In this document: in pieces, positions 7,233 to 60,806 of the stretch
Layout of the letters: the number at the start of each line of letters is the position of its first letter
How positions within the stretch are numbered: position 1 is the first letter of the stretch
From: Desulfobacterales bacterium
Lineage (GTDB): Bacteria > Desulfobacterota > Desulfobacteria > Desulfobacterales > UBA2245
DNA: 64,000 nt
Assembly (NCBI GenBank): GCA_040771865.1
Contig: JAXGZF010000005.1
Location: 186,001-250,000 of the forward strand
Direction: 5' to 3'
Translations under genes and position numbers: made by a program
Notes under the pieces: generated by a model
Database searches by the model: none
What the model was told of the DNA's origin: nothing
Seen by the model: only the letters and a program-made list of their open reading frames with translations

Positions 7233-10200
7233 CTACGGGTTTGCGGAAATCTGGCTCAGAACCTTGTGAATTCGGGAGGATTGGAGCAGAAAAGCTTCAA
7301 GCCTGGCTTGAAGAATGGGGGGGAAAGGATTGCCGTCGGTTTCGATGGCCAGAAACGGAAGCTCTTCAACGGATTGCGCAATCCGGTCGAGAGCCTTGTT
7401 TCCGTTGCCTGAGATCCGCTTTCCCGCAATATTCATTTCACAGTTGAGAATGGCTTCGGACAGACGATTGGGCATGCACCCGAAGGGACCTACGGCGATG
7501 ACGCCGCAGTAAGGGTCCAGTATTTCGGTGATGGCCGCGCCGGTCGTCAGAATGGCCTCGCCGACCAGATGCGGACTGATCAGGCGCCGGCTGTGCTGAA
7601 TGATATGGTCCACATCCTCGTTTCGATCGGAGCACAGGCCGGTTTGAGCCAGAATGTTACGGAATGTTCTTTCCACTTTCTTCATGCAGGCGTTTCGAAG
7701 TCTCTGATAAAGCCGTTTTCCCATGCCTAGAGGATGCGTGGAAAGACGATGCTGCACGCACCAGTCGGTATAATAGATCCATTCAATCACGGAGGAAACC
7801 TTGACGGCAAAACCCTTTCGAGCAAGCATTTCGGGCAGGTGCTGGCGAGAGATGCCGTCGTGACGGACAAATATCTCACCGCTGAGCAGAATCTTGGGCG
7901 TTTCGCACCAGCTGCGGCGCACCGGAATGTTGCCCAGAACGCGGGCGACCCCTTGAATTTCTTCAGCCAGACGTCTTGAACCTTGAAGCGTTTCAAGCCC
8001 CAGAATGATGCGCTGCCACTGGCCGTCAAAGACCTCGAGCGCCGGCTTGCAGTCGACGGCATTGGTCATGAGCGTGGACCGGATTTCTTCCATGATCGAG
8101 GCCAGAACCACGCCGCGCCACAGGTTCATGATCTGTTTTCCGGAAATCAGCCCGGCATAGCTGTTTTCCGCGGAAAGTGACATCAGAGCGACATTCTCGA
8201 AGCCCTGTTTCAAGATGAGGTCGTTTAAAAACACCGAATACTGCCCGTACCGGCATGGACCCGAAGCCGTGGGCATAAAGTAGATGGTCCGTTCCTCGGC
8301 GTTCCGGTTTTCAAGGTGTTTAAAAAGCGTTCCGGTGGTCAGCTGCAGCGGCAGGCATTCCTTGCAGCTGCTGTGAGCCCTTCCAATTTTGAGCGCCTCG
8401 TTGTCCGATGGGGGGAGGGCGGATGCTCGTACTCCGGATTTTCGAAAAGCGGCCGCCAGGGCTTCAGCGCCCAGGTTTCCCATGGAGGGAAAGACCAGGT
8501 GCACTCTCGGATCGTTAATCGGGAGGCGTTTCTGCATCGAATCGATATAAACCGCATGTCCGTTTTCAAAGGAAAGTCCGGCCGGAATAAACGGCTTTAA
8601 AGCCTCTGAAAAAACCTTTCTTTTTTCCAGCTCCCGGTAGCGCACAATGATGTCCAGAAAGGCTTCGATGCGGGTTTCCAGACCGGCGTCGGCCGTATGG
8701 CTGTCCAGCTCGAGAGTCAGGGACGGTTTTTTGCCCATGATGTCGCGGAAATACCCGAGAAGGAAAGAATCCGGACCGCAGGAGAAATTGGTGATGAAGC
8801 ATCCGAAAAGCTGAGAATGCCGCCGAATGAATCGGGCTGCCTTGAGAATGCGCTGACCTGCGGCCCAGTACATGTTGGGTTTTGCCGCTTCTTCCGACAG
8901 CGGTAGAAAATTCAGCGGAATAACACGGATTCCCCGCGAGGCGAGCTTGTGGGGAATTCCCATGTGCGCCTCGGATACTAGGGAGTTGTAGACGCGGCCC
9001 AGAATGACGACCGCAAATTCCTCGGGGGCTTTTTCAAGGTTTTTCAAAATCCTGTCGCCCTCCTGAACCATTGCGTTGAGCACCGTTTTCTGGCGTTCAA
9101 CGGCCCTGTCAAAAGCAATGGCGGCTTTTTCCCGGGATACGCGAAGCGGACGGGCCAGGTCGGCAAAGGTTCTGCGGGCGGTTTGCAGGCCTTGAGAAAA
9201 ATCGATAACCGGTTGCAGGATGCGATCGGATTTTCGAAGCGCCGCCAGATGATCCAGATGCTTGAAAGCCGATGCCAGGTAATAGGGCTCGCCCTGGGAA
9301 AGCGGACAGATTACGCTTGTTTTCTGCGATGGGTCCGAAAAATCCGCCTTGAACTGCGGCAGAAAGATATAATCCGGATGCTTTTCGACGAGGGTGTGAA
9401 AAAACCCGTGGGCCAGTTCGACCGGATAGCAGAAGGGGGCCCGTCTGGCTTCGATTCCTGCCGGGTCGGGTTTTTCCGGAATGAGGACTTGAAATCCGAG
9501 CTGAGTAAAAAATTCATGGTACAGGGGGAAATACGTGTTGACCATGAACGATTTGTTGATGCCGATACTTCGGGCATTTTCTGAATAATGACAGGGCCTT
9601 GTCTCGAAGATCGTGCGCTCGTAATCCGAGACGTGGTTTCGGTTTTGAGCGTCGAGCCGGATTCGGGAGCGGATGTTGACCCACCGGTTGCAGGCGCCGC
9701 CGAACGGGAAGACCGCGCCGTCGATGATGATGCGGGATATCTCGCACTTGCGGTCGCATCGATCCGCGCCGCCCCTGCAGATGAAACTCTTTCCGTATTC
9801 GAGCGACCGGTTTTCGAGGGCATGCAGCGGGAAGCCTTGTTCCTTCATCAGGCCCAGTTCGATTTTCCGTTCGACCTCGAGCGCCACGCCGAAGGCGCCC
9901 ATCAGGTGAGGATCCGGCGGAACGATGATGTCCTTTCCGGTCAATGCGGCCATGGCCAGCGGCACGGCCCGGTTGCAGCATACGCCTCCCTGCATGAAGA
10001 CCTTTTTGCCCACCGGCCGGTTGCCCTTAACCCGGTTGGCGTAATTCATGCAGATCGAGTAAACCAGCCCGGCCACGATATCCGGAGTTTCAGTCCCTTC
10101 CTGAAAGGCGTTCTTGATGTCGCTGCTGATGAAAGCCGCGCACTGATCGTTGAAATTCGGGGGATGCTTTCCCTGCATGGCGGCCGAAGCGATCTGCTCC

Positions 10201-11561
10201 ATTTCGATATTCAGGGTCTCCTTGGCCGCCTCTTCCAGAAATGATCCGGTTCCGGCGCTGCATGCCTCGTTCATGGCGTAATCCGAGGCCACGCCGTTGG
10301 TGATGTAGGTGTACTTGGCATCCTGTCCGCCGATTTCAAAAATCGTGTCCACCTCCCTGTCAAAGAAAAGGGCCGCGGAAGCGTGGGCGATGATTTCGTT
10401 GACGACGCCGTCGGTCAAGGCATGGAGACCGGCGATCTGCCGCCCGGATCCCGTGACGCCGATGCCGACGATGTTCATCGAATCGGAAAGTTCCCCAAGC
10501 TGGCGGCGCAGAGCCGCGTAACACGCTCTGGACGCGCCCACGGGATCCGCATTGGTGCGCAGATAGACCGAAGCAAGGACCTGGCTGTCTGCGGTTCTCA
10601 ACAGAACGGCCTTGGTGGTGGTGGAACCCACGTCGAGACCGATGATGCAGCGGTTGCCGGCTTCAGGCGTTCCCATGCGGGATTCCTTGAACACGACCCT
10701 GTGTTCGGCTGTTTTCAGCGGGGGAAGCTGAACAAAGGTCTTGCGGTCTTTTGTGAAAATATCCTCAATTTCATGAAGGGGGAAGGTTTTGTTTTCACTG
10801 GCCCAGAGGGCGCATCCCAGCGCTTCAAAATAAGGCGCCTGTTCGGGGACGTACAGATCCGGAATCTCGGATTTCAGAAAGTCGATCATCACGTGGTTGC
10901 GCGCGCAACCGCCGATGACCACGATGGCCTTTTTTCCGACCGGCCGGATCAGCTCCAGAATCTTTCCCGCCATCATGCGGCAGAGCCCGGCGGTGACCCG
11001 TTCCTTGGGAACGCCCTTGTTGGTGGCATGAGTGCAGTCGCTTTTGCAGAACACGCTGCACCGGCCCGAAACCGAGTATGGAGGCTCCCGGCGGGCAATC
11101 TCAACGGCTTCTTCCAGAGAAAGGTCCATTCTGCGGATCTGCTGCAGAAAAAACTCTCCGGTGCCCGATGCGCACTTGTTTCCGGCATAAACCGCCGTGA
11201 TACGCCCGTTTTTCCCAAGACCGTAAACCATGAAGGTTTCAGCCCCCGCGCTGACCACAGCCGAATACCCGTTCGAATTCGGACGGATAAATGCCAGGGC
11301 TTTTTCAACGGCTTCGGGTTCGGAAATCGAGGATAGCCGAGTGTATTCCCGAAACTTTCTGCCGGTGGCAGCAATCGAGGCGTAACTCCGAATGTCCAGA
11401 CCATTTAAAGCCTTTTTGAGTGCGGCATGGGGGTTGCCGTGATGAGAGAGCATTCGGTGGCCCATCTCGAAAAAATCTCCCGAGGCATTTCGCGAAATCT
11501 CGCTCAGCGACAGGGTGGCGGCGCCGAAACATATTCCAAGCGATTTCATGGTGGTATCCAT
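7233..11561 (-). CDS. Fused double CoA-activase (BadF/BcrAD ASKHA ATPase x2) plus DUF2229/dehydratase-like domains; PlsA/Ger-like
   Basis: Two activase modules (GNKCASGTG/CSVFC and GLDVGSTTTK/GGQDAK/MNEACSAGTG), then CYPVE, NFSCGPD, ECLP, GPCRYGQY, PFGCMP. Confidence 0.85.
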   Translation of the reverse strand: MDTTMKSLGICFGAATLSLSEISRNASGDFFEMGHRMLSHHGNPHAALKKALNGLDIRSYASIAATGRKFREYTRLSSISEPEAVEKALAFIRPNSNGYSAVVSAGAETFMVYGLGKNGRITAVYAGNKCASGTGEFFLQQIRRMDLSLEEAVEIARREPPYSVSGRCSVFCKSDCTHATNKGVPKERVTAGLCRMMAGKILELIRPVGKKAIVVIGGCARNHVMIDFLKSEIPDLYVPEQAPYFEALGCALWASENKTFPLHEIEDIFTKDRKTFVQLPPLKTAEHRVVFKESRMGTPEAGNRCIIGLDVGSTTTKAVLLRTADSQVLASVYLRTNADPVGASRACYAALRRQLGELSDSMNIVGIGVTGSGRQIAGLHALTDGVVNEIIAHASAALFFDREVDTIFEIGGQDAKYTYITNGVASDYAMNEACSAGTGSFLEEAAKETLNIEMEQIASAAMQGKHPPNFNDQCAAFISSDIKNAFQEGTETPDIVAGLVYSICMNYANRVKGNRPVGKKVFMQGGVCCNRAVPLAMAALTGKDIIVPPDPHLMGAFGVALEVERKIELGLMKEQGFPLHALENRSLEYGKSFICRGGADRCDRKCEISRIIIDGAVFPFGGACNRWVNIRSRIRLDAQNRNHVSDYERTIFETRPCHYSENARSIGINKSFMVNTYFPLYHEFFTQLGFQVLIPEKPDPAGIEARRAPFCYPVELAHGFFHTLVEKHPDYIFLPQFKADFSDPSQKTSVICPLSQGEPYYLASAFKHLDHLAALRKSDRILQPVIDFSQGLQTARRTFADLARPLRVSREKAAIAFDRAVERQKTVLNAMVQEGDRILKNLEKAPEEFAVVILGRVYNSLVSEAHMGIPHKLASRGIRVIPLNFLPLSEEAAKPNMYWAAGQRILKAARFIRRHSQLFGCFITNFSCGPDSFLLGYFRDIMGKKPSLTLELDSHTADAGLETRIEAFLDIIVRYRELEKRKVFSEALKPFIPAGLSFENGHAVYIDSMQKRLPINDPRVHLVFPSMGNLGAEALAAAFRKSGVRASALPPSDNEALKIGRAHSSCKECLPLQLTTGTLFKHLENRNAEERTIYFMPTASGPCRYGQYSVFLNDLILKQGFENVALMSLSAENSYAGLISGKQIMNLWRGVVLASIMEEIRSTLMTNAVDCKPALEVFDGQWQRIILGLETLQGSRRLAEEIQGVARVLGNIPVRRSWCETPKILLSGEIFVRHDGISRQHLPEMLARKGFAVKVSSVIEWIYYTDWCVQHRLSTHPLGMGKRLYQRLRNACMKKVERTFRNILAQTGLCSDRNEDVDHIIQHSRRLISPHLVGEAILTTGAAITEILDPYCGVIAVGPFGCMPNRLSEAILNCEMNIAGKRISGNGNKALDRIAQSVEELPFLAIETDGNPFPPILQARLEAFLLQSSRIHKVLSQISANP

Positions 11562-11930: not shown

Positions 11931-13724
<1,794 letters not shown>

Positions 13725-13738
<14 letters not shown>

Positions 13739-14075
13739 AAAGGACAAGGCCGCGGCCCGAAAGCGTCTGGCCGAAAAGGTCCGCGCCAAGGAGCGCCGCA
13801 AGATGCGCGCCCGCCAGGACGAGGCCCGGAATGTGTGGTTCGGTCTGGGAATGTTCGGCGTGGTGGGCTGGTCCGTGGCCATTCCGGCGCTGATCGGAAT
13901 CTTTGTCGGCGTCTGGATCGATATGACCTGGAAAAGCCCTTATTCCTGGACCCTGATGCTCCTAGTGATCGGCGTTGCCGCAGGCTGCGTCAACGCCTGG
14001 TTCTGGGTGCGGCGCGAAAGCGGCGCCATTGCACGGAAAAACGACTCGGATTCGAACGATGGAAATGATTCCTGA
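13725..14075 (+). CDS. atpQ: N-ATPase AtpQ (AtpZ/AtpI-like)
   Basis: WFGLGMFGVVGWSVAIP...G.WID...WTLMLL. TTG start at 13725 inferred from GGAG upstream. Confidence 0.85.
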
Positions 14076-14337
14076 TGCTTATTCGATGGCTGCCGCCGCA
14101 TTCTGGGGTCTTATGCTGGGTGTTTTTTATTTCGGCGGCCTCTGGGTCACCGTTCAAAGAATGGCGGTTTCAAAAAATCCCAGGGCACTGATGGTTTCGA
14201 GCTGGCTGATTCGAATCGCCGTCGTCCTGCCGGGAATGTGGCTGGCGCTGAAGCAGAGCGTCGGGGTCTTCTGCGTTGCTTTCGGCGTTTTTGTGACGAC
14301 GCGGTTCGTGATTCAGAAGATCGTGGTGCGTCATTAA
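14059..14337 (+). CDS. atpR: N-ATPase AtpR
   Basis: GVFYFGGLWVTV...SSWLIR hydrophobic protein in the canonical position between atpQ and atpB. Confidence 0.82.
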   Translation: MEMIPDAYSMAAAAFWGLMLGVFYFGGLWVTVQRMAVSKNPRALMVSSWLIRIAVVLPGMWLALKQSVGVFCVAFGVFVTTRFVIQKIVVRH

Positions 14338-14376
14338 CGGGCTGTTGAAACGGCTTTTACTTCGAATGAGGAATCC

Positions 14377-15084
14377 ATGCATATCAGTCCGGATAATTTG
14401 ATTTACTGGCAGAAGGGTTTTGCGGTTTTCAACGCGACCATCGCGTTTACCTGGGTCGTGATGGGTCTGCTGACTCTGATTTCCTGGATCATCACCCGGC
14501 GGCTCACCTCGGATGTCTCGCTGTCTAGGGGACAGAATCTTCTGGAAAGCATTGTGCTGGGAATGGTTAACCAGATTCGGGAAATCAGCAGACACAGGCC
14601 CGCCCGCCTTCTGCCCTTTCTCGGAACCCTTTTTTTGTTTGTCGCCGCGTCCAGCCTGCTTTCGGTGATTCCGGGCTTCGAGCCTCCCACGGGATCCTTG
14701 TCCACAACCGCCGCCATGGCCATCTGTGTATTCATATCCGTTCCTGTATTCGGCATTTCCCGAACAGGTTTAAAGGCTTACCTGAAGAATTATGTCCGGC
14801 CCAATCCGCTGATGCTGCCGTTTAACGTGTTGGGCGAAATCAGCCGGACCATGGCCCTGGCCGTCCGGCTTTTCGGCAACATCATGAGCGGGACCATGAT
14901 CGCCGCCATTCTGCTGTCCGTGACGCCCCTGATTTTTCCCGTGATCATGCAGCTGTTCGGGCTGCTGACCGGGCTGGTTCAGGCGTATATCTTTGCCGTC
15001 CTGGCGGCGGTCTATATCTCAGCAGGCATGGAGGTACAGATCCGCAGGCAGGAAGATTTGAAGAAAGGAGAACCTGATGGATAG
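14377..15084 (+). CDS. atpB: N-type ATPase subunit a
   Basis: EISRTMALAVRLFGNIMSG; GLVQAYIF. Confidence 0.95.
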   Translation: MHISPDNLIYWQKGFAVFNATIAFTWVVMGLLTLISWIITRRLTSDVSLSRGQNLLESIVLGMVNQIREISRHRPARLLPFLGTLFLFVAASSLLSVIPGFEPPTGSLSTTAAMAICVFISVPVFGISRTGLKAYLKNYVRPNPLMLPFNVLGEISRTMALAVRLFGNIMSGTMIAAILLSVTPLIFPVIMQLFGLLTGLVQAYIFAVLAAVYISAGMEVQIRRQEDLKKGEPDG

Positions 15085-15355
15085 TTTAAGCCTCGTGGCA
15101 ATTGTATCCATTGCTTCTGCGGCCGTCTGCATTGCAATCGGTTCGATCGGCCCGGCGCTCGGCGAAGGTCGCGCGCTTTCCCAGGCCCTGAGTTCCATCG
15201 CCCAGCAGCCCGATGAAACCAGCTCCATCACACGGACCCTGTTTGTCGGTCTGGCCATGGTCGAGTCCACCGCCATATACTGTTTCGTGGTGGCGATGAT
15301 TCTGATTTTCGCCAACCCCTTCTGGAATTTTTTCATGACCAAGGCGGGAGGATAA
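15077..15355 (+). CDS. atpE: N-type ATPase subunit c (Na+-type motif)
   Basis: GPALGEG, AQQP loop, ESTAIY. Confidence 0.95.
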   Translation: MDSLSLVAIVSIASAAVCIAIGSIGPALGEGRALSQALSSIAQQPDETSSITRTLFVGLAMVESTAIYCFVVAMILIFANPFWNFFMTKAGG

Positions 15356-15358
15356 AAG

Positions 15359-16117
15359 GTGCTGATCAACTGGTTCACGGTCCTGGCCCAGATCGTCAAT
15401 TTCCTGATTCTGGTCTATCTGCTCAAGCGCTTTCTGTACGGACCGATCATTCGGGCCATGCAGGAAAGAGAGAAGAAAATCGCCCGTCGGCTTCAGGACG
15501 CTGAAGACAGGGAACTGGAAGCCGATCAGCGTTCTGCAGCCCTCGAAGATGAAAAAGAGAAGCTTCTGAATGAAAAAGAGGAGATTCTTCGCGACGCCAA
15601 AGAGCAGGTAAAGGCCTGGCGGGACAGCAGGGTCGAGCAGCTTCGGGAAGAGATCGACCGGCTCCGCCAGGCATGGATCGACAGCGTCGAGAACGATAAG
15701 CAGAAGTTTCTTCAGCAGTTGAAACAAAAGGTGGTCTGCCAGACCCTGATGATATCCCGGAAGACGCTTGTTGATCTGGCCGGAGAGGATATTGAGCGCC
15801 TGGCGGTCCGACGGTTCGCCGAAAAGTTGCAGACAAAACCCCGCGACAAGGCGAACCTGTCCGCTGTTTCCGGAAAGATTCTGATCCGATCCGGCTTTGA
15901 AATGGATTCCGCTCTTAAAGACGAACTGGCCGGGGTTCTTGAATCCGTTTTTCCGGCCGCAGGTGGCCTTGAGTTCATTGTAAGCGACGGGATCGGGTTC
16001 GGAATCGAACTGGTTGCCGGCGACTGGAAGCTGACGTGGAATCTTTCCGTTTATCTGGAAGGCATGGAGGAGGAAATTCACCGCTCTCTGGCTGTTGCCT
16101 GCGGAGGCAAGCCATGA
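15359..16117 (+). CDS. atpF: N-type ATPase subunit b (extended, delta-like C-terminus)
   Basis: [28 protein letters not shown], coiled coil, C-terminal [15 protein letters not shown]. Confidence 0.92.
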
Positions 16118-17625
16118 CCCGATCGGGCCTGCTGTCCGTGCTGGACGAGGTTTACCGGACCGTTGAAGCGTATCTGGACGGGCGGAAGACGGAAGTCCGG
16201 ATTCAGGAGGTCGGCAGAATTTACTCGATCGGCGCCGGCATTGTGCAGGCGTCCGGCCTCGGCGGGGTGAAATCCGAGGAACTGGTGACCCTGGGAAGAG
16301 GCGTGGTCGGCCTGGTGCTGGATCTGCTGCCGGGCCGGATCGGCATTGCGCTGCTGGACAGCCAGGCCGATCTCAAGGCCGGTGATGAGGTCTCCCGAAG
16401 CGGACGAATTCTCGATGTTCCGGTGGGAGATGCCCTGATCGGCCGCGTGGTGGATCCCATGGGAAGGCCTCTGGACGATTCGGGCCCGGTCCATGCTGCC
16501 GAACGCTGGCCGGTGATGCGGCAGGCCCCCGAGATCATTCGAAGATCCCCGGTGGAAAAACCGCTTCAGACCGGCCTGAAGGTGATTGATGCGCTGATTC
16601 CCATCGGCTGCGGGCAGCGGGAGCTGATTCTCGGAGACCGCCAGACCGGAAAGACCGCCATCGCCCTGGACGCCATCGTCAACCAGAAGGGAAAGGACAT
16701 TCTGTGCGTGTATTGCGCCATCGGGCAAAGAAGCGCGAGCAGCGCCAGAATGATTCATGAACTCAAGGCCCGGGGCGCCATGGCGTACAGCATCGTGATG
16801 GTGGTCGAAGGCGACGACGTTCCCGGGCTTCAGTATATCGCCCCCTACGCCGCTACCTCCATGGCCGAATATTTCATGGAAAAGGGCCGGGATGTTCTGA
16901 TTGTCTACGATGACCTCACGCGGCATGCCCTTGCCTACCGTCAGCTGTCTCTGCTGCTTCGACGGCCGCCCGGGCGGGAGGCCTTTCCGGGGGATATTTT
17001 TTATGTCCATTCCCGTCTGCTGGAGCGCTCCACGCATCTGAAGCCCGAATTCGGAGGCGGCTCCCTGACCGCGCTTCCCATCATCGAAACCGAGGCCCAG
17101 AATCTCAGCGCCTATATTCCCACCAACCTGATTTCCATCACCGACGGCCAGATTTACCTTTCGCCGGATCTGTTTCGAAAGGGCGAGCTTCCGGCCGTGG
17201 ATGTGGGCAAATCCGTATCCCGGGTCGGAGGCAAGGCCCAGCTTCCGTCGTATCGCAAGGTGTCCGGGGACCTTCGGCTTTCCTATTCCCAGTTTCATGA
17301 ACTCGAATCTTTCGCCCGATTCGGAACCCGTCTGGATGAGCGAACTCGAAAGACCCTGGAACACGGAAGACGGGTTCGGGAAATCTTGAAACAATCCCAG
17401 TTTTCGGCCCTGTCTGCGGCCGAACAGGTGGTGATTCTGCTGGCCGTTGTTTCCGGAGCTCTGGATGATATTCCCCTGGAAAAAATTGCCGAAGCCGAGT
17501 CCGTCATCATCGCGCTGCTGGCGTCCAGATCCGGGCTTTCCGATCAGATTGCCAATGCCATGCCGGATGACGACCTCTGGGACGGCCTTCTCAATATGCT
17601 TCGTGATCGTCTCAGGAGTCTATAG
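16114..17625 (+). CDS. atpA: N-type ATPase alpha subunit
   Basis: [34 protein letters not shown] at 16114 overlaps the atpF stop. Confidence 0.96.
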
Positions 17626-17630
17626 CCGGC

Positions 17631-18506
17631 ATGCTGAGCCTGGATGTGCTGAAAAAGAAAATCAAGACCGCCCAGGATCTGCTTTCCGTGGTCAAGACCA
17701 TGAAAAGCCTGGCAGCCGTGAATATCCGGCATTATGAAAGCGCGGCCGCCTCTCTGGAACGCTACAGCGAGGTGGTGGACGCCGGCTGGCAGGCCCTGTT
17801 TCGAACCCCCATGCAGGTGCTTCCGGCGGTGAATGAGCGGCAGATCATATTTCTGGTGTTCGGATCGGACCAGGGCATGTGCGGCCAGTTCAATGAGGTG
17901 ATCGCAAACCTGGCTTCTGAAAGATTCAGAGCCGATCAGGCGGCCGGCCGGCGGGTTGCAGTCTGGACCGCAGGCGAACGGGCTATGGCCGCCCTGGAAA
18001 ATCTTCATGACGTGGAAGAACATTTTTCCCTGCCGGGCGGGCCGGCCGGCATACCGGGGCAGGTTCAGGAGATCATTCGAACCTTTGAACAGCGGCGCAA
18101 TGAAAATGGAGTCGAGGTTCTGGAGGTTTTTTACAACCAGCTGATTTCCGCCGGAGGCTACGAACCGGTTCATGCACGGATTTTACCCCTGGATTCAAGG
18201 TGGGTTGAACAGCACCGGCGGAAAAAATGGCCGAACCCTTGCCTTCCGCTACTGGGAATGGCGCCAGAGCACCTGTTTCGGGAGCTGTTCCGGCAGTATC
18301 TTTTCGTGTCGTTTTACAAGGCGTTCGCCCAGTCCCTGGCCAGTGAAAACGCCGCCCGGCTCCGGTCCATGCAGGCGGCGGAAAAAAATATTCAGGAGCT
18401 CGATGAAACGCTTGAGGCCAGATTCAGGGAAACCCGGCAGAACATCATCACCTCGGAGCTGCTCGACATCATCTCGGGCTTTGAGGCGGTCAGCGGAAAA
18501 TCATAA
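17631..18506 (+). CDS. atpG: N-type ATPase gamma subunit
   Basis: VVKTMKSLAA, GSDQGMCGQFN, SENAARLRSMQAA, RQNIITSELLDI. Confidence 0.95.
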   Translation: MLSLDVLKKKIKTAQDLLSVVKTMKSLAAVNIRHYESAAASLERYSEVVDAGWQALFRTPMQVLPAVNERQIIFLVFGSDQGMCGQFNEVIANLASERFRADQAAGRRVAVWTAGERAMAALENLHDVEEHFSLPGGPAGIPGQVQEIIRTFEQRRNENGVEVLEVFYNQLISAGGYEPVHARILPLDSRWVEQHRRKKWPNPCLPLLGMAPEHLFRELFRQYLFVSFYKAFAQSLASENAARLRSMQAAEKNIQELDETLEARFRETRQNIITSELLDIISGFEAVSGKS

Positions 18507-18672: not shown

Positions 18673-19623
18673 ATGAATAAACCCATCGAAACAGTTTCCA
18701 TTGTCGGCGCAGGGGCGGTGGGAGCTGCTTATGCGAGCATTCTTCATGAGATGGACTGCCGTTGCGTCTCGCTTGTCGCCGGCGGCGATCGGGGCAAACG
18801 GCTTCGGAAAGAGGGTCTGATGGTTAACGGCAGGCACTACCTTATTCCGGTTCTTCTCCCGGAAGATTTGTCAGAACCTTCCGATCTTGTCATGGTTGCG
18901 GTGAAGCACCATCATCTGGGTGAGGCCATACGGGACGTGAAAAACAGAGTCGGAGCAAAAACCGCCATTATGTCCGTGATGAACGGCATAGAGAGCGAGG
19001 AACGGATTGGTGCGGTTTATGGAATGCAGAAGGTTCTGTATGCCGTGACCATGGGCATCGATGCGCTGAGGGAAGAAAATCGTATTACGTATACCACGCA
19101 GGGAAAGCTGTTTTTTGGAGAGGCGCGAAACGCGGTTCCTGCCGAGCGGGTCGCGCGCGTGCAGGCTCTTTTCGACAAAGCCGGGATAATCTATGAAACG
19201 CCGCCTGATATGATCCGTATTCTTTGGTGGAAGTTTATGGTCAATGTCGGCATCAACCAGACATCGGTTTTGCTTCGCGCTCCCTACTCCGTATTTCAAA
19301 CCTCGCAGGAGGCAAGAAATCTCATGGAGTCTGCAATGAGGGAGGTCTTAATGCTTTCGGAAAAGGCGGGAGTCAATCTTTCCGAAGAGGATATCGGAAA
19401 GTTTGGAATCGTCCTTCAAAGTTTAAGCCCGCAGGGGAAAACTTCCATGCTTCAGGACATCGAAGCCCGCAGGAAAACGGAGGTGGAGATGTTTGCGGGA
19501 AAGGTTGTCGAGCTTGGAAAAAGGCTTGATGTTCCAACGCCGATCAATCAGCAACTGTTCGATTCGATCACGAAAATGGAAGCCGAATACAGTTCGTCGC
19601 CATCTTTAAAACCTCTATCCTGA
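18673..19623 (+). CDS. panE: 2-dehydropantoate 2-reductase (ketopantoate reductase)
   Basis: GAGAVG, SVMNGI, WWKFMVN, TSMLQD...RKTEVE. Confidence 0.88.
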   Translation: MNKPIETVSIVGAGAVGAAYASILHEMDCRCVSLVAGGDRGKRLRKEGLMVNGRHYLIPVLLPEDLSEPSDLVMVAVKHHHLGEAIRDVKNRVGAKTAIMSVMNGIESEERIGAVYGMQKVLYAVTMGIDALREENRITYTTQGKLFFGEARNAVPAERVARVQALFDKAGIIYETPPDMIRILWWKFMVNVGINQTSVLLRAPYSVFQTSQEARNLMESAMREVLMLSEKAGVNLSEEDIGKFGIVLQSLSPQGKTSMLQDIEARRKTEVEMFAGKVVELGKRLDVPTPINQQLFDSITKMEAEYSSSPSLKPLS

Positions 19624-19686
19624 CGGCTTCGTAAAAAGTCCCGGGAAGAAGTGATGCACACAACAGGGTCCTCTTTAAGGAGTCAG

Positions 19687-19719
19687 AAAAAAAAAGCCGC
19701 CGCCCGGAAAGGCGGCGGC
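19687..19719 (-). terminator. Rho-independent terminator of the cstA-arsA operon
   Basis: Perfect 9-bp stem gccgccgcc/ggcggcggc followed on the minus strand by a 9-T tract, just after the last arsA stop. Confidence 0.8.
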
Positions 19720-19737
19720 GAATGTTCGGGGCCGTTG

Positions 19738-20721
19738 TCAGGCGAGCGGGAAAAGGGATTGACTCAATCGGGATACCATTTCGAGCCCCCTGACTTCATT
19801 CTCAAAGAGGGGTATTTCTCCCCGGATGTTTTCAAAGGTTTGCAGAACCTCCTCCCGGTATCGATCCTGCATCTTCACGCGATTGAGGATGAAGGCCGCG
19901 GTATCCTCTCCGATTTCCGATTTGTCGATGGCCTGATTGATGATCACGCCGCCGATGGGAATGCCGAATTCTTCGAACCATCCGATGAACCGGCGGATCA
20001 CCGCGATGGGCAGGGATTCCAGCAGGGTGACGAAGAAGAAGGCGCTCTTGTCCTTATCCGTCAGGATTTTGCGCATATGTTCGATCCGGTCCCGGAAGGT
20101 CGTCAGATAATCCAGCAGAGGATCCTCTTCCTCCTCCGCCTTCTTTTTCCGGAATGAGAGGCTGAGGCGCATGCTTCTGGCCTCTTCACGGCTTTTCATC
20201 ATCTTGTCCACCCAGAGAGTGTATACCTTGGACATCCCCAGCAGTCTCCTGGCGTTCGCCGTGGGTGCGGTGTCGAAGACATAGAACTCAAAGGCGTCGT
20301 CAAAGATGATGTTGATCATGTTCTCAAACATGGCCGACTCCTCAAAGGCCGGATTCATGGTGGCGGATTCGATGAAATCTTCGGCCTTCGTTGGAATGTC
20401 CGCAAATTTGAGAAACCAGCTGATCTTCTCTCGTATCTCGGTCTTGGATTTGTCGATCGTGTCCTTGGTGTCGATTTCCTGAACGTGGAGGTTGTCCGTG
20501 CCGGGGATCAACACGGGCCTTCCGAAGACATCCTGCTGGAAGAGATTGGAGAGGCTGTGGACGGGATTGGTCGAGGCCAGCAAGGTCTTTTTCCCCTGTT
20601 TTGCCATCCAAAGGGCTACTGCGGCGGCCACCACGGTTTTCCCGACTCCTCCCTTGCCTCCGAAATAGATGTACCGGATTCCGGGGTGTTCTCTGAAAAA
20701 ATCATCCATCGTATTCTTCAT
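19738..20721 (-). CDS. ArsA/Get3-family ATPase (copy 2; switch I Asp replaced by Asn)
   Basis: GGKGGVGKT deviant Walker A, STNPVHSL, DTAPTA; no cysteines. Confidence 0.9.
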   Translation of the reverse strand: MKNTMDDFFREHPGIRYIYFGGKGGVGKTVVAAAVALWMAKQGKKTLLASTNPVHSLSNLFQQDVFGRPVLIPGTDNLHVQEIDTKDTIDKSKTEIREKISWFLKFADIPTKAEDFIESATMNPAFEESAMFENMINIIFDDAFEFYVFDTAPTANARRLLGMSKVYTLWVDKMMKSREEARSMRLSLSFRKKKAEEEEDPLLDYLTTFRDRIEHMRKILTDKDKSAFFFVTLLESLPIAVIRRFIGWFEEFGIPIGGVIINQAIDKSEIGEDTAAFILNRVKMQDRYREEVLQTFENIRGEIPLFENEVRGLEMVSRLSQSLFPLA

Positions 20722-21701
20722 GACAATGTCTCCTCAAACATCACTTCGGATAGTTTTCGAATGGATTCCAGCCCCTTGATCTCAGAGTCGAACTCCGGCA
20801 CTCTCGAGAGCACCGAATTCCCGAAGGTCCTGTCGATCAGATCGAGGGAATGGGTCTGCATCTCGATCCTGTTTCTAAGGTAGGCGGGGATGTTCTCCTG
20901 AAGAAGGTCCCTGTTGATCACCCGGTTGACGAGGTAGCCCGCCAGGGGGACGTTGTATTTGGCAAAGAGCCCTGCGGCCTTCTCCGTGTCGACAATGGTC
21001 ATCTCTTCGGGATTGACCACGAAGAAAAAGGCGGTCTTCCGGGTGTCCGTCATGATCTTGGAGGACATTCCGATGCGATTCTTGATGTACATGAGTTCAT
21101 TGTAAATCTCGTCTTCCTGGCCGTCCTCCTCCCGCTTCATGGTGGAGATGGCCTTGTCGTATTCACGCATCTGTTCCCGAAGGGTTGTGATCTTCTCCAG
21201 CCAGGCGTCGTAGATCGAGGCCATGCTCAAATAATACAGGGCATGCCCCAGGGGCACCAGATCGTAGATGTAGTAGTCGAAATCCGCCTTTACGACAATA
21301 TCCACCACGGCATCGAAAATGGCGCTTTCCTCCATGGCGGGTTCAGCGGAGGAGGCCTTGATATAGCTCTCGATCTCTTCAGGGATCTGTTTCATTCCGT
21401 ACATGTCCAGAATTTTCTGTCGTATCTCCTGCTGGTAAGCCTGTATCCGTTTGTCTGCATCCACTTCACAGGCAAAAAGATTCGGCATGATTTCGATGTT
21501 TCCTTTACCGAATATGTCCCTTTCGAAGATATCGCTGAGAGAGGCCTGCGGGTCCACGGAGAAGACCAGCACGCGTTTTCCTTTTTTGGCCAGATAGTAG
21601 GCGGTAGCCGCGGAAAAGGTGGTCTTGCCGAGACCGCCCTTTCCTCCGTACATGATATAACGTCGTTCGGGATACTTTTCGAAGACATCTGCCAGAGACA
21701 T
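20718..21701 (-). CDS. ArsA/Get3-family ATPase (copy 1; degenerate switch II)
   Basis: GGKGGLGKT, SVDPQASL, DLVPLGH in place of DTAPTGH. Confidence 0.9.
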   Translation of the reverse strand: MSLADVFEKYPERRYIMYGGKGGLGKTTFSAATAYYLAKKGKRVLVFSVDPQASLSDIFERDIFGKGNIEIMPNLFACEVDADKRIQAYQQEIRQKILDMYGMKQIPEEIESYIKASSAEPAMEESAIFDAVVDIVVKADFDYYIYDLVPLGHALYYLSMASIYDAWLEKITTLREQMREYDKAISTMKREEDGQEDEIYNELMYIKNRIGMSSKIMTDTRKTAFFFVVNPEEMTIVDTEKAAGLFAKYNVPLAGYLVNRVINRDLLQENIPAYLRNRIEMQTHSLDLIDRTFGNSVLSRVPEFDSEIKGLESIRKLSEVMFEETLS

Positions 21702-21975
21702 GATTCCTCCTTTTCAACTGGTCGGCACTGCAAGAGGGAACGAGCCGGAATCCGTTGCTTTGAATTCTCATTCACTCCCGCCTTGCAGGGATCAGGAATG
21801 TATTGAAACCGTCGCCCTGCTGATTTCGTTCAAAAGGAACGATTGAAGCGGCGGATCACGCAGCGCCAGACTCGTATTTCACGCTGCTCCGCCCCCTTAA
21901 GCGCTCCTTTGATTCCTTCAAAGAGAGTTGGGGTGATCCCGCACCGGGCGCGGGGTTCGGTAGTTCCCATTCAGA

Positions 21976-22266
21976 TCAGTACATGCTGTCTACAAAATCC
22001 TTTTCCCTGAGCATTCTCCTTTTCCAGGTGGTAATCTGGGGCACGACATGGGGAAGCAGGCGAAGCGAATAATAGGGGGGAAGGATCGGAATGCCGAGCA
22101 TGTCCCCCATGGTGATCAGGATAAAGAGATGTTCCATGCTGGATCGGGTCTTCAGGGCATGCCTGGCCATCCCGTGGGTGGCCATTCCATAAGTGAAGTC
22201 CCTGAAAAAACCCACAATGCCGCCACCTTTCTTCTTTTTTTTATCCGGTGAGTCCTTTTCCGTCAT
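21976..22266 (-). CDS. Small CstA/ArsA-associated protein (cory-CC-star-like), paralog 2
   Basis: LFILITMGDMLGIPILPPYYSLRLLP...WKRRMLREKDF; aligns with the neighbouring small ORF. Confidence 0.75.
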   Translation of the reverse strand: MTEKDSPDKKKKKGGGIVGFFRDFTYGMATHGMARHALKTRSSMEHLFILITMGDMLGIPILPPYYSLRLLPHVVPQITTWKRRMLREKDFVDSMY

Positions 22267-22299
22267 TGACTGGTCCTTTCAATTTCTTTTGACTTTTTT

Positions 22300-22557
22300 T
22301 CATTCCTTTACAAAATCAAAGAAATCCCTTTCCTTTAGAATGCGTCTCTTCCAAACGCCGAGCCGCTTCATGTAAAAAGGGATCATCCTCAGATGGTAAT
22401 AATTGAAGAGCCCCGGAAATCCGATCATGGGCCCGAAGAGCCCGAGCATGAACAGATGGTCCAGGGCCCGTTTCTCCCCATGGATGCCTTCCAGCATGCC
22501 ATAAAGAAAGAATCCCCTGAGATATTCGCCGAGAGTTTTCATCCATGAAAAGAGCAT
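22300..22557 (-). CDS. Small CstA/ArsA-associated protein, paralog 1
   Basis: LFMLGLFGPMIGFPGLFNYYHLRMIP...WKRRILKERDF; start reassigned to the ATG at 22557. Confidence 0.72.
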   Translation of the reverse strand: MLFSWMKTLGEYLRGFFLYGMLEGIHGEKRALDHLFMLGLFGPMIGFPGLFNYYHLRMIPFYMKRLGVWKRRILKERDFFDFVKE

Positions 22558-22654
22558 GAAACCGCCCCATGATTCCGAGTTGCGGGTCCGGCATCGCCCT
22601 TTCGGGCGCCCGGCACCGATTTCCATCCATGCCCGGAAAATTTCCCAAGATGTC

Positions 22655-24310
22655 TTAAGCCATCGCCTCTTTCGCTTCGGCCGGAATGGGTTCGCCCTTG
22701 TATTTTTTGAAGGCCTTCCATCCGTCATAGGCCAGGATCAGGGCGCAAATAATAAGCAGAATGGCCACTGCCGCGGCGAAAATGTTACCGAAGACCTTCT
22801 GCCCCTTAATGGCGGCCGGAATGAGTTGAAAAAACGAGGTGTAGAAAAGGGCGCAGACCGTCGTTGCATACATAAAGAACATCGGATAGATGACAATCTT
22901 ATAGTTCTTTGCTTTCTGAACCAGGAAGAGGGTGACCAGGAGAAGGGCAAAGGAGGCCATCAACTGGTTGGCGCCCCCAAAGAGGACCCATACATAGAGC
23001 CAGGTCCCCGTCTTAACCAGAACAAAGGTGATGACCAGGGCCACGATCGTTGCCACGTGGGGATTCTTGGCGATGCCGAGCGCGTCGCCCAGAAGTTCGG
23101 CTGTTGCGACCTTCATGAAACGGAAGACCAGATTTACAATAGTCAGGGCCAGGATGATGATCATGGCGCCTGAAAGCGCCTTGGCGTAACTCAGCGGAAG
23201 GCCTATGGAGGTAATGGTGCTGCCCAGCCCTCCCACAAAGATGCTGACCGGGTTGCTCACGCTTTTGATATACTCGGCCTTGTCCGCAAAGGCTGTTGCG
23301 CATACGATCACCGCGATGATGGAGATGGTAAACTCGGCAAACATGGCCCCTGCCGTAACGGGCCGGACATCCAGCTCGTTCTCCAGTTGCCTGGAGGTCG
23401 CGGTGCTGGATACCAGGCTGTGCCAGCCCGAAATGGAGCCGCAGGCGATTGTGACGAAAAGAATCGGCCAGAGCGGACCCATTCCGATGCTCCAGCTGGT
23501 AAACGCCGGCAGCGTCATGGGCTTGGCACCGATCAGGATTCCGATTACGCCGGCGATGATTCCAAAATAGACCACATACACAGAGGCGTAATTGTATGGC
23601 TGAATAAAACGCCAAACCGGAAGGATGGAACTGAAGTACCCGAAGATGAGCACACAGATGAGTACCGTTGTGTAGGAGAGCTCGATGCTCCAGACGGTAC
23701 CTATCCAGATGGACAAAAAGATCAGGGCAATGGCGATCACGGTCGTTCCGATGATATTGAACCTTGCCTTGTAAATCAGGTGTCCCACGAGAAAGGCCAC
23801 CCCGATGATCATCAACATCGGGAATGGAAGGGCGGGATTCCCGCTGACACCCTTTGTAATGACATGTCCAAAAGCAGTGGCAATTAAAAGCAGGTAGAAG
23901 TAAACGAAGGTGAGGAGAATTTTTCTCGCCCGGGGGGAGATGAGTTTGTAGCCAAGCGCTCCGAAGGTATCCCCGTCGCTCCGTATGGAGATCATGGCGC
24001 TGGAAAAATCATGGAGCCATCCGATGAAGAATACTCCCAGCCCCAGCCAGAGGACCGCCGGCACCCAGCCCCACTGAAGGGCAACAATGGGGCCGACAAT
24101 CGGAGCGGCGCCGGCGATGGAGTTGAGCTGGAACCCATAAAGAACATTCTTGTTGGCGGGCATGAAATCGACGCCGTCCATATACATCCTGGCCGGCGTC
24201 ATCCTCTTTTCATCCACACCGAATACCTTGTTCGCAACGTGACGCGCATAGACCCAATAACCTAGAACAACAATTACTACCCACCACAATAAGACCCAAA
24301 GTGAATTCAT
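22655..24310 (-). CDS. cstA: Carbon starvation protein A family transporter
   Basis: TPA..YMDGVDF.P, SIAGAAPIVGP, LFVTIACGSISGWHSLV, LFGGANQL; many TM helices. Confidence 0.93.
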   Translation of the reverse strand: MNSLWVLLWWVVIVVLGYWVYARHVANKVFGVDEKRMTPARMYMDGVDFMPANKNVLYGFQLNSIAGAAPIVGPIVALQWGWVPAVLWLGLGVFFIGWLHDFSSAMISIRSDGDTFGALGYKLISPRARKILLTFVYFYLLLIATAFGHVITKGVSGNPALPFPMLMIIGVAFLVGHLIYKARFNIIGTTVIAIALIFLSIWIGTVWSIELSYTTVLICVLIFGYFSSILPVWRFIQPYNYASVYVVYFGIIAGVIGILIGAKPMTLPAFTSWSIGMGPLWPILFVTIACGSISGWHSLVSSTATSRQLENELDVRPVTAGAMFAEFTISIIAVIVCATAFADKAEYIKSVSNPVSIFVGGLGSTITSIGLPLSYAKALSGAMIIILALTIVNLVFRFMKVATAELLGDALGIAKNPHVATIVALVITFVLVKTGTWLYVWVLFGGANQLMASFALLLVTLFLVQKAKNYKIVIYPMFFMYATTVCALFYTSFFQLIPAAIKGQKVFGNIFAAAVAILLIICALILAYDGWKAFKKYKGEPIPAEAKEAMA

Positions 24311-24477
24311 AACTTCCCTCCTTGGGATTGAAACCCGGAAAAAGGGTGCATTAAGTCTGTTTTGTTATCATCCTTTCATCCTCTGAGAATGACAAAGGGA
24401 GCGAAATTCGAGATGTCGCCGTTAGGAGCTGGGACCATGGGTGAACAAAACACGCCATCAATACATAAGGACTTTAG

Positions 24478-24620
24478 CAGGCTGTTGAAAAACTGCGTCT
24501 GAGGCCGCCATTCAGCGTTGCGCGGCTCTCGCCAATGCTCACATATGCTTGAATATGCTGCGCTTGTCGTATCGCCGCGCGCCTTGCCTGACGGCCTGAT
24601 CCTTGTTTTTCAATACCCTG
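24478..24620 (-). mobile_element. 143-bp MITE copy 1 (opposite orientation to copies 2 and 3)
   Basis: TIRs caggctgttgaaaaa / tttttcaataccctg, flanked by a TTAG direct repeat; near-identical to 25861-26003 and 60588-60730. Confidence 0.88.
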
Positions 24621-25064
24621 TTAGACGAGAGGAACAATAATGATTCCGGCAACTGAATTGAAACATCACCTCCTTCTATCGGACGGAAAAGGGTTGTGAA
24701 ATGAGGTGGACGGCCGACTGGATGCTATGTCTTCATACTTTTCGGGTTTAGGGTGAAACCTCCTTTCCTTATGCCTGAAAAAAATGTTTACCCGGCATAC
24801 CGATAATGAAATGAAAGAAAGACTATTTTTTAACAGAAGATAAATGCGAATGTCAAGTTCGCCGATTTCAACAGTTCAGGAGAAGGGCGTGAAAAAGGGG
24901 ACAGGTCTGCTTTTGATTTTTTCGCCGGCAGAAGATTATTTTTGCCTTTTGACTCCTGTGAACAGAATATCCCGAGGCGTCATTATTCGTGCGGGCCTGC
25001 CGGAAAGGCTGTTTCGAATAAGGAGGATGGCTCAGTGTTTACGGACATTGAAAATGCGATGACC

Positions 25065-25219
25065 GGAAACGCGGCCCTGCTTCGGTCCACGCAGGCGACG
25101 AAAAAATATTCAGGAGCTCGATGAAACGCCTGAGGCCGGATTCAGGGAAACCCGGCAGACGATCCATTCGAACTTCTATACATCGTTTCAGGCTTTGAGG
25201 TGGTCAAGGGGAAACATGA
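25065..25219 (+). pseudogene. Decayed duplicate of the atpG 3' end
   Basis: Matches 18345-18506 (e.g. aaaaaatattcaggagctcgatgaaacgc.tgaggcc.gattcagggaaacccggcaga) with indels. Confidence 0.85.
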
Positions 25220-25340
25220 CAATGAAAGTTTCTCTATTATTTTCAATAAAGCATGGTATCATGGCGCCCAATGCGGCGGGTTCATTATTTTTCATCGACA
25301 AAATGAATAGTTGCAAACTCTGAGGCGGAATCATCCAATT

Positions 25341-25685
25341 ATGGCATTCAACGAGATCGAACTTCATCGAATCAAAAAAGAGGTGGGAGGGCTTTGCCGG
25401 AAAAGATCTCCCGAAGCGCTGAAAGACCAGTTGCGGTTTGACTACAAGATCGAAAAATATAATGTGATTATCTATGAAATCCGTCCCCGGTGGGACAATC
25501 CAGCTGAAATCACGGAAATGCCGATCGCGAAATTGACCTTTGTTGATAGCCGGAATCTCTGGAAACTTTTCTGGCAGAGGGCGAACGGGAAATGGGAAAA
25601 ATACGAACCAATGGATTCTTCGAAAAACTTAGGCGATCTGGCGCAGGCAATTGCAAGCGATGTCTATGGGTGCTTCTTCGGATAA
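25341..25685 (+). CDS. DUF3024 family protein
   Basis: IYEIRPRWD...PIAKL...WKLFWQRANGKWEKY...D.YGCFFG. Confidence 0.82.
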   Translation: MAFNEIELHRIKKEVGGLCRKRSPEALKDQLRFDYKIEKYNVIIYEIRPRWDNPAEITEMPIAKLTFVDSRNLWKLFWQRANGKWEKYEPMDSSKNLGDLAQAIASDVYGCFFG

Positions 25686-25860
25686 ACGGCTCGCAACCCG
25701 CAAGGCATCATGGAAACCGCGATGCCTGAAAGGGGCCGGGTGTGCGAATTGATGGACAAGGAATACTCGGATTCATTGATTCCGATGGGCATCGGAACGA
25801 GTTTTGTTTCGGCTCTGGTCTTCATGCTTTCCGCCGGAGCCGCGGCAGGCTTCCTTTTAA

Positions 25861-26003
25861 AAGGGTGTTGAAAAACAAGAATCAGGCCGTCAGGCAAGGC
25901 GCGCGGCGATGCGACAAGCGCAGCATATTCAAGCATATGTGAGCATTGGCGAGAGCCGCGCAACGCTGAATGGCGGCCTCAGGCGCAGTTTTTCAACAGC
26001 CTG
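25861..26003 (+). mobile_element. 143-bp MITE copy 2
   Basis: Same TIRs (first base mutated); TTAA on both sides. Confidence 0.88.
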
Positions 26004-26301
26004 TTAAAGGGCCAGGACGATGTTCCGCAGCTCGGGGCGGCATTGTCCTTTTGCTGATATTTATGGTTCTGATCGTCGGGCCGGTTCTTTACAACAAAAA
26101 ACCATCGCGTTTCGAAAAACAAAGATCGCCGCTTTTCCGAATGGACGGCATCGGCATTACCTGTCCGCATCTGACTCGAAATTCGAAGAACTGGCCCGCC
26201 TGATTGAAAAGAAAAGGAATCAGGTCTGCCGTTGACCTTTTCGTTAACAACGGCGGACAATTTTTCCCGCGTCTCGGCCGCTGGCAAGCCCGTCCCTGTT
26301 T

Positions 26302-60291: not shown

Positions 60292-60587
60292 TTCTGTACG
60301 GGCTCGAAAAAATTGCCGCGCCGTGGTGGTTCGATTCGGTTCATTGTTGTACGGAAGCATAAACACAGAATGTCTGTTGCGCGGTGCGTTCGCGCGGCAG
60401 GCATACTGACGATGGATTATCTTCGCGTTGGCGCCCGATACCGGGGCAAGTGCCGGAACGTAAAGAGGCATGGCATCTCCGTGGGCTTTTTGGGGGTATG
60501 CTTATATGTTGTCCGTGCTTTTTTGTAAAGCAATTCAGATGGCTTGAGATATAATTATCCGGTAAAAATTTGAGATGCCGGCATTAA

Positions 60588-60730
60588 CAGGGTGTTGAAA
60601 AACAAGGATCAGGCCGTCAGGCAAGGCGCGCGGCGATACGACAAGCGCAGCATATTCAAGCATATGTGAGCATTGGCGAGAGCCGCGCAACGCTGAATGG
60701 CGGCCTCAGGCGCAGTTTTTCAACAGCCTG
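60588..60730 (+). mobile_element. 143-bp MITE copy 3
   Basis: cagggtgttgaaaaac...gtttttcaacagcctg with TTAA on both sides. Confidence 0.9.
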
Positions 60731-60806
60731 TTAAAGGGATTGCCATGCATAAGGCTGAAAAGGTTGAATCAGAACGCTATACAAAATTGCAGAAATGCGG
60801 GGATCT

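Follow-up and report, generated by a model that had tools for sequence, protein, structure and literature searches.

A stretch of 64,000 nucleotides (nt) from a Desulfobacterales bacterium (GenBank assembly GCA_040771865.1, contig JAXGZF010000005.1, positions 186,001 to 250,000; hereafter the window) contains an operon in which cstA, the gene of a carbon-starvation carrier, is followed by cstX1 and cstX2, encoding two small paralogous proteins, and by arsA1 and arsA2, encoding two ATPases of the Get3/ArsA family. The gene set is conserved in many phyla, it is transcribed, and its two ATPases are strictly divided at a catalytic position, with an aspartate in ArsA1 and an asparagine in ArsA2. 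It is proposed that the operon encodes a CstA-family secondary carrier together with a dedicated cytoplasmic module that would control or energise CstA in an ATP-dependent manner, a reading to which a probability of roughly 0.4 is assigned.

The accessory module would consist of one or two CstX helical-hairpin proteins and an obligate ArsA1/ArsA2 heterodimer, in which ArsA1 alone would hydrolyse ATP. CstX2, aided by the divergent CstX1, would hold the ATPase dimer at CstA on its cytoplasmic side. Binding of ATP would shut the dimer and hydrolysis at the single active site would reopen it, and this open/close cycle could be relayed through CstX to the carrier, making the uptake of a carbon substrate ATP-dependent. 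The carrier might either be energised, as ArsB is by ArsA, or be gated by the ATP level of the cell.

Conservation of the gene set

More than 616 matches came from a pattern scan in which each species was represented by one genome, and the best 80 of these (loci L003-L082) were compared with the window. According to the record titles, the 80 loci come from Thermodesulfobacteriota, Chloroflexota, Actinomycetota, Bacillota, Nitrospirota, Acidobacteriota, Methylomirabilota/Rokubacteria, Verrucomicrobiota and Pseudomonadota, at least nine phyla in all. The order cstA-cstX(-cstX)-arsA-arsA is kept on both sides. Of the 68 loci with at least 2.5 kb of upstream sequence, 63 have a cstA gene just upstream and co-oriented, and two arsA genes directly follow cstX in all 69 loci with at least 2.3 kb of downstream sequence. 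Among the loci with both sides complete, cstX is present twice in 32 and once in 27. As the arrangement recurs in related loci, it is far beyond chance.

Co-occurrence was followed in an even sample of 151 genomes from the phylum of the window. A strong CstX match was found in 23 of them, and these are the same 23 genomes that have an ArsA2 orthologue (at least 377 bits, with ArsA1 adjoining; one partial). The small proteins and the ATPase pair are closely linked. The genome of the window itself, which is 98.3% complete, encodes one CstA and just two Get3/ArsA proteins above the family cut-off, both of them in the operon.

The members of the operon differ in how fast they evolve. In 52 distant loci, the median identity to the window proteins is 42% for CstA, 71% for CstX2, 67% for ArsA1 and 62% for ArsA2; similarity to CstX2 was the criterion by which these loci had been chosen, so that the value for CstX2 is inflated but those for the ATPases are not. 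CstX2 and both ATPases form a tightly constrained unit, and CstA is faster evolving. CstA matches PF02554 (E 5.6e-115, 385.6 bits against a cut-off of 27) in an alignment that spans profile positions 1-354 and 404-560 of 560. Its score for the equivalog NF011590 (187.6 bits) is far under the cut-off of 1188 and therefore no substrate is inferred from this match. No solved structure related in sequence to CstA was found.

The ATPase pair and the CstX proteins

ArsA1 and ArsA2 share 34% identity over 322 amino acids (aa; E 5e-66), and both are clear members of the family, with 222.3 and 213.6 bits for TIGR00345 (GET3_arsA_TRC40, cut-off 135) and 231.6 and 223 bits for PF02374, the ArsA Pfam family (cut-off 24.3). 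For TIGR04291, the equivalog of arsenical ArsA, they score 98.4 and 94.3 bits, where the cut-off is 650. Both proteins are single-domain, so that the fused domains of TIGR04291-type proteins are absent, as is the metalloid site with its three cysteines. Get3 proper is a homodimer that is held together by a CXXC zinc site and has a hydrophobic client groove; with only one cysteine in ArsA1 and none in ArsA2, this zinc site is absent as well. The best solved sequence relative of both ATPases is an archaeal Get3 (3ug6; E 3.1e-58 for ArsA1 and 1.2e-49 for ArsA2).

The deviant Walker A motif is present in both proteins (GGKGGLGKT in ArsA1, GGKGGVGKT in ArsA2) and its columns are invariant. Switch I reads SVDPQASL in ArsA1, with an aspartate, and STNPVHSL in ArsA2, with an asparagine, and switch II is also unlike between the two (Table 1). 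In the 80 loci, the switch-I aspartate was found in 77 of 77 ArsA1-like open reading frames (ORFs) and the asparagine in 69 of 69 ArsA2-like ones, counting ArsA-family ORFs with a P-loop and excluding six fragments without it. Solved relatives have an aspartate at this position, except for the engineered chain 9nbo. The switch-I aspartates of ArsA activate the catalytic water, and ArsA in which they are changed to asparagine does not hydrolyse ATP, yet binds MgATP and closes; the same change has been applied to Get3 (PMC12415280). Because a natural asparagine sits at this catalytic position, ArsA2 should bind ATP without hydrolysing it. The strictness of the split makes it probable that ArsA1 and ArsA2 form an obligate heterodimer in which one site hydrolyses ATP and the other binds it.

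CstX1 and CstX2 share 37% identity over 71 aa (E 5e-18). A word-indexed search with CstX2 gave 4387 homologues at E ≤0.001, which fall into 378 clusters at 50% identity. PF25952 is precomputed on all 120 listed CstX2 homologues, the cluster of the window's own protein included, and clusters of CstX in the ESM Atlas are named DUF7990 with a score of 0.96. In a Pfam scan of the CstX proteins at E up to 0.1 no family, DUF466 included, was matched, and no solved structure related in sequence to the CstX profile was found. The sole curated model that is touched is NF041419, cory-CC-star, a family that is named for a C-terminal Cys-Cys motif. The scores of 35.5 and 28.2 bits (E 7.2e-9 and 1.4e-6) are under the cut-off of 80 and neither CstX protein contains a cysteine, and this identity was rejected.

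A quick maximum-likelihood tree of 135 CstX domains, with support from the Shimodaira-Hasegawa-like approximate likelihood ratio test only and with the careful search unfinished, suggests two CstX lineages. The CstX2 type is a clade of short branches with support of 95 and 81 rows, made up of 43 'second', 36 'single' and 2 'first' genes. The remaining 54 long-branched rows are assigned to the CstX1 type and comprise 43 'first' genes, 9 orphans and 2 'second' genes. The cstX1 gene of the window falls in this group of first and orphan genes and its cstX2 in the 81-row clade. Genes of the CstX2 type always abut arsA1.

The Kyte-Doolittle hydropathy of CstX, averaged over 19 residues, peaks at 1.3-1.5 in the two proteins of the window, and among 46 relatives the peak has a median of 1.62. 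This most hydrophobic segment is a borderline case of a membrane helix, and Gly, Asp and Pro residues are conserved in it. Natural fusions bear on its topology. CstX was found behind a thioredoxin-like domain (P0219, P0187, P0128, P0275), joined to a second CstX (P0001, P0269) and, rarely, in front of ArsA1 (P0286 and P0280, the latter clean and in frame with almost no linker); in one fragment the C-terminus of CstA precedes CstX (P0155). Three more apparent fusions of CstX to ArsA seem to be artefacts of frameshifts, and one with an ABC permease appears to be a chimera. The fusion partners are cytoplasmic proteins, and CstX should therefore have both its ends in the cytoplasm, which argues against a single transmembrane segment (TMS) and against a classical tail anchor. 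On this evidence CstX would act as a hairpin adaptor rather than as a plain membrane anchor.

In an AlphaFold2 model of the fusion P0280 (alignment A8, with small misaligned tails; predicted local distance difference test score, pLDDT, 77.8; predicted template-modelling score 0.72), the CstX part is predicted as a long helix at residues 8-49, a loop at the GD..G.P..PP motif and two short helices at 59-76. The best match of the modelled ATPase part is archaeal Get3 3ug6, with a target-normalised template-modelling (TM) score of 0.82.

Locus, transcription and accessory genes

The first-pass annotation of the window had described five co-oriented genes closed by a terminator, two small paralogues, and an overlapping pair of 327-aa ArsA-family genes with one cysteine and none. 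Each of these points was reproduced: all five genes are minus-strand ORFs (Table 1), arsA1 and arsA2 overlap by 4 nt, and 19 nt past the last stop lies a hairpin with a stem of 10 pairs, 9 of them G-C, that is followed by a T run. For cstX1, the longest ORF (22300-22728, 142 aa) runs into the 3' end of cstA. RNA contigs of both runs described below have, relative to the window, a 4-nt insertion behind position 22580 in the spacer between cstA and cstX1, which is probably a strain difference. As this insertion breaks the 142-aa reading and spares the 85-aa one, the start at ATG 22557 is the likelier. The spacer between cstX2 and arsA1 is unusually long here; related loci range from overlapping ORFs up to ~230 nt. 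An Rfam scan of 19400-25600 gave nothing above chance, the sole row being Spot 42 with E 0.66.

Table 1. Features of the cstA operon in the window, and loci in other genomes that are referred to in the text.
Feature	Position or locus	Strand	Description
cstA	22655-24310	minus	CstA-family multi-pass carrier, 551 aa; PF02554 match
cstX1	22300-22557	minus	DUF7990 small protein, 85 aa from ATG at 22557; fast-evolving paralogue type
cstX2	21976-22266	minus	DUF7990 small protein, 96 aa; slow-evolving type
Spacer cstX2/arsA1	21702-21975	minus	274 nt, non-coding; covered by RNA contigs; no Rfam match
arsA1	20718-21701	minus	Get3/ArsA-family ATPase, 327 aa; switch-I Asp50; switch II DLVPLGHA
arsA2	19738-20721	minus	Get3/ArsA-family ATPase paralogue, 327 aa; switch-I Asn52; switch II DTAPTANA
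Intrinsic-terminator-like hairpin and T run	19696-19719	minus	RNA-contig cover stops at ~19732
cstA leader	24311-24726	minus	covered by RNA contigs; contains a 152-nt interspersed repeat at 24470-24630
Lone second cstX1-type genes	L096-L100, L102-L105		genomes G012, G025, G038, G048, G065, G097, G101, G128, G136
~125-aa thioredoxin-like protein, examples	L019:9583-9960, L004:11205-11582, L053:4409-4810		
cstA-cstX-single arsA-cstY architecture	L106-L111, L113-L116; also L031, L040, L066		

Transcription was followed in contigs of two metatranscriptome runs from one study, the same as the probable source-sample study of the assembly; the two runs contain 75-78% of sampled words. RNA contigs cover 19732-24726, and none lies in 19300-19701 or in 24727-25300. 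One contig (21777-23034) joins the spacer upstream of arsA1, cstX2, cstX1 and the 3' end of cstA, and further contigs cross the arsA1/arsA2 junction. This fits a single transcription unit of five genes from upstream of cstA to the terminator, with the limit that contigs cannot prove a single molecule and that both runs come from one study.

The repeat in the cstA leader has inverted ends and further copies in the window at ~25858-26009 and ~60585-60736. It has 41 matches in its own genome with 93-100% identity (among 40 scored of 111 candidates). RNA contigs on the copy in the leader show very high depth and unrelated flanks on both sides.

The neighbours of the operon encode an N-type ATPase, a PanE-like reductase, a DUF3024 protein, a radical SAM/SPASM protein and a UbiA prenyltransferase, and no ars gene was found among the neighbours scanned. 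The N-type ATPase operon is complete (11952-18506, plus strand; beta, epsilon, AtpQ (PF09527), AtpR (PF12966), a, c, b, alpha and gamma) and lies directly beside the cstA unit, with the PanE-like gene alone in between. An ORF of 1442 aa at 7233-11561 (minus strand) combines BcrAD/BadFG-type ATPase and CoA-enzyme-activase (DUF2229) domains.

Two further proteins accompany the operon in other genomes. A protein of ~125 aa, usually with a CxxC motif, lies beside it in 28 of the 80 loci, and this is the thioredoxin-like partner that is joined to CstX in P0219, P0187, P0128 and P0275. It gave weak thioredoxin- or protein disulfide isomerase-type matches alone (E 0.007 and weaker) and none to ArsD, and an ArsD-like identity was rejected. 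A search of the window's own genome with one protein query gave no match to it. The second protein has ~200-240 aa with an N-terminal membrane helix, fits the published description of CstY, and was found in 7 of the 80 loci and in 12 of the 151 sampled genomes. Eleven CstY loci were examined: nine have the order cstA-(cstX)-single arsA-cstY, one is cstA-cstY and in one cstY stands alone, so that cstA comes first in 10 of the 11. The single ArsA of this sister architecture has the switch-I aspartate in 9 of 9 cases.

CstY resembles eukaryotic CCDC47 in predicted structure, which is taken here as a lead, not a finding. The ESM Atlas model of one CstY aligned to the eukaryotic DUF1682/CCDC47 cluster over 209 residues with TM-scores of 0.84 by query and 0.59 by target. 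Three of nine CstY members touched the Pfam model of CCDC47 (PF07946), at best with 27.2 bits against a cut-off of 27.7 and in the N-terminal 35 residues only. The 120 best CstY relatives carry no precomputed Pfam family, and a 9-sequence profile found no CstY in the window's own genome. Among the literature matches listed, none was relevant by title or abstract to a link between CstY and CCDC47.

Competing readings and meaning of the operon

ATP-dependent control or energising of the carrier fits the observations best, and it has two precedents. ArsA turns the carrier ArsB into an ATP-assisted pump (PMC12415280), and Escherichia coli CstA requires the small protein YbdD for pyruvate uptake (PMC5847655). 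In the ArsAB system (E. coli R773; Leptospirillum ArsA, 9NBL-9NBW), as here, a secondary carrier goes together with an ATPase of the same fold, and the ArsA pseudo-dimer has two nucleotide sites and a catalytic switch-I aspartate. In ArsA, however, a single fused chain contains two active sites and a three-cysteine metalloid site, whereas the operon encodes two chains with one degenerate site and no cysteine site, an unrelated carrier and an extra small protein. In the CstA-YbdD and BtsT-YjiX (DUF466) systems of E. coli, the carrier is likewise encoded with a small cytoplasmic protein that is needed for uptake (PMC5847655); the CstX proteins differ in having neither a DUF466 Pfam match nor a C-terminal Cys-Cys, and the E. 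coli systems have no such ATPase. The cory-CC-star family resembles CstX as the only curated model touched, and differs in its cysteines and in the scores given above.

Several observations weigh against a direct action of the module on CstA. An adjacent cstA is missing in 5 of the 68 loci, and in the 52 distant loci CstA is conserved much less than its supposed partners. A second gene of the CstX1 type stands alone, far from the operon and with no conserved neighbours, in at least nine genomes (Table 1). The conserved basic C-terminus of CstX has a pLDDT below 50 in the model of P0280. The solved structures closest to the ATPases belong to archaeal Get3 proteins (3ug6, 3zq6), which bind tail anchors, rather than to arsenical ArsA. 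A CCDC47-like protein is encoded in the sister architecture, and eukaryotic Get3 and CCDC47 are both membrane-protein biogenesis factors. E. coli CstA and BtsT function without any ATPase of this kind (PMC5847655), and no binding or transport test of the operon was found in the searchable literature.

Part of this evidence would be accommodated if ArsA1/ArsA2 were a Get3-like chaperone that shields hydrophobic parts, either the CstX hairpin or segments of CstA, and hands them over to the membrane or the CstA complex, so that the ATPase would serve biogenesis or quality control and not each transport cycle. We consider this, the main rival reading, possible but doubtful. In both sequence and fold the best solved relative is archaeal Get3; the middle of CstX is of borderline hydrophobicity, with only ~30 residues behind it, so that it would leave the ribosome late; and CstY of the sister architecture resembles a subunit of an endoplasmic reticulum (ER) complex that chaperones multi-pass proteins. 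However, with both termini in the cytoplasm, as the fusions suggest, and with a strongly basic and charged C-terminal tail, CstX would not be a classical tail-anchored client, and its place among the most conserved parts of the operon suits a fixed subunit better than a passive client. The Get3/TRC40 proteins (3ug6, 3zq6) are likewise single-domain ATPases, dimeric and with a helical subdomain, but they are homodimers with two active sites and C-terminally anchored clients, whereas the operon would encode a heterodimer with one asparagine site, together with a transporter. Get3 homodimers are not known to include a built-in subunit that cannot hydrolyse ATP. In a control search no CstA-family match was found in Methanocaldococcus jannaschii. 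The side of the argument that comes from CstY is weakened in that CstY was not found in the window's own genome with the 9-sequence profile, that its 120 best relatives carry no precomputed Pfam family, and that the link to CCDC47 consists of one predicted-structure comparison and sub-threshold hidden Markov model matches. It is unlikely that the CstA-linked modules are prokaryotic relatives of the ER factors Get3 and CCDC47, the latter of the PAT complex, which jointly serve a dedicated multi-pass client; the window operon may in that case be a pared-down form, with part of that role taken over by a Get3 paralogue that does not hydrolyse ATP.

CstX and the ATPase pair could also act on something other than CstA, as a general ATP-dependent holdase or in a protection of the BagAB type against metabolic stress, with cstA adjacent merely through shared expression in starvation. 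Mycobacterial BagA and BagB are two adjacent Get3-like ATPase paralogues that are thought to act as a pair, and BagAB protects against glycerol and nitric oxide stress. The ATPases of the window match the NCBIfam models of both, though weakly (46-55 bits, with cut-offs of 400-521), and the five loci without adjacent cstA, the orphan CstX copies in unrelated contexts and the far higher conservation of CstX and the ATPases than of CstA point in the same direction. On the other hand, cstA is adjacent on the same strand in nearly all loci of many phyla, all five genomes whose locus has no adjacent cstA have CstA elsewhere, and the sister architecture likewise begins with cstA. CstX is, as far as the accessible part of the survey by Castillo and Saier goes, never found without cstA in its operon (PMC2963123). 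An independent stress module is thus regarded as distinctly improbable. Still less credit, indeed next to none, is given to a split ArsA that drives a metalloid pump for arsenite or antimonite. Membership in the ArsA Pfam family speaks for it, but TIGR04291 failed by a wide distance, one and no cysteine stand where ArsA uses three, the neighbours scanned contain no ars gene, and the accessible part of the same survey reports no arsenic genes in any cstA operon (PMC2963123). The first-pass annotation had already judged arsenite efflux unlikely, and it was right to do so. Its proposal that the small proteins link an ArsA heterodimer to CstA was upheld in part: the conserved and transcribed unit, the co-occurrence of CstX with the ATPases and the fusions speak for it, but it was not new.

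That an ATPase energises CstA through a small protein restates the proposal of Castillo and Saier (2010), who described cstA-cstX-arsA operons and suggested that CstX couples transport by CstA to ATP hydrolysis by ArsA (PMC2963123). Of the 26 CstA-ArsA associations that they listed from SEED, 24 include a CstX of ~90 aa described as 'single TMS', and some of the operons also have a CstY of ~210 aa; the ArsA homologues have ~330 aa and one domain and are without the three cysteines, and a few genomes have two adjacent ArsA and two CstX paralogues (PMC2963123). The window belongs to this cstA-cstX(-cstY)-arsA type, with the same families, order and sizes (CstX ~90 aa, ArsA ~330 aa) and no ars genes. 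In the accessible part of that paper, asparagine is said to be the only residue that can replace the aspartate of the 'SXD' motif in single-domain homologues, which is not related to pairs; Asp and Asn are not tied to the first and second ArsA, the two types of CstX are not separated and CstY is not linked to CCDC47 (PMC2963123). The present analysis adds the extent to which the gene order is held in related loci, the strict split of Asp and Asn between ArsA1 and ArsA2, two putative lineages of CstX, its predicted cytoplasmic-hairpin topology, and the sister architecture of a single ArsA with the CCDC47-like CstY. Among the later literature matches listed for CstX, the 2010 paper alone concerns this protein, and no paper was found on DUF7990. 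For carbon starvation protein, anion-transporting ATPase or ArsA operons, none of the matches since 2011 was relevant by title or abstract, and no experiments on the cstA-linked use of ArsA since 2010 were found in the searchable literature.

Beside arsenite pumps and tail-anchored protein targeting, both well studied, the operon represents a third, widespread use of the ArsA/Get3 fold, next to a carbon-starvation carrier, and the module is found in many slow-growing anaerobes and soil lineages. The fixed Asp/Asn split offers a direct handle for mutational tests. If the ATPases energise or gate CstA, this would be the second example, after ArsAB, of a secondary carrier made ATP-dependent, here via a separate adaptor. 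If they serve assembly, the operon would amount to a Get3 pathway in bacteria whose client is known, and if the modules are relatives of Get3 and CCDC47, they would offer a simple bacterial model for the handling of hydrophobic hairpins and a clue to the origin of these factors.

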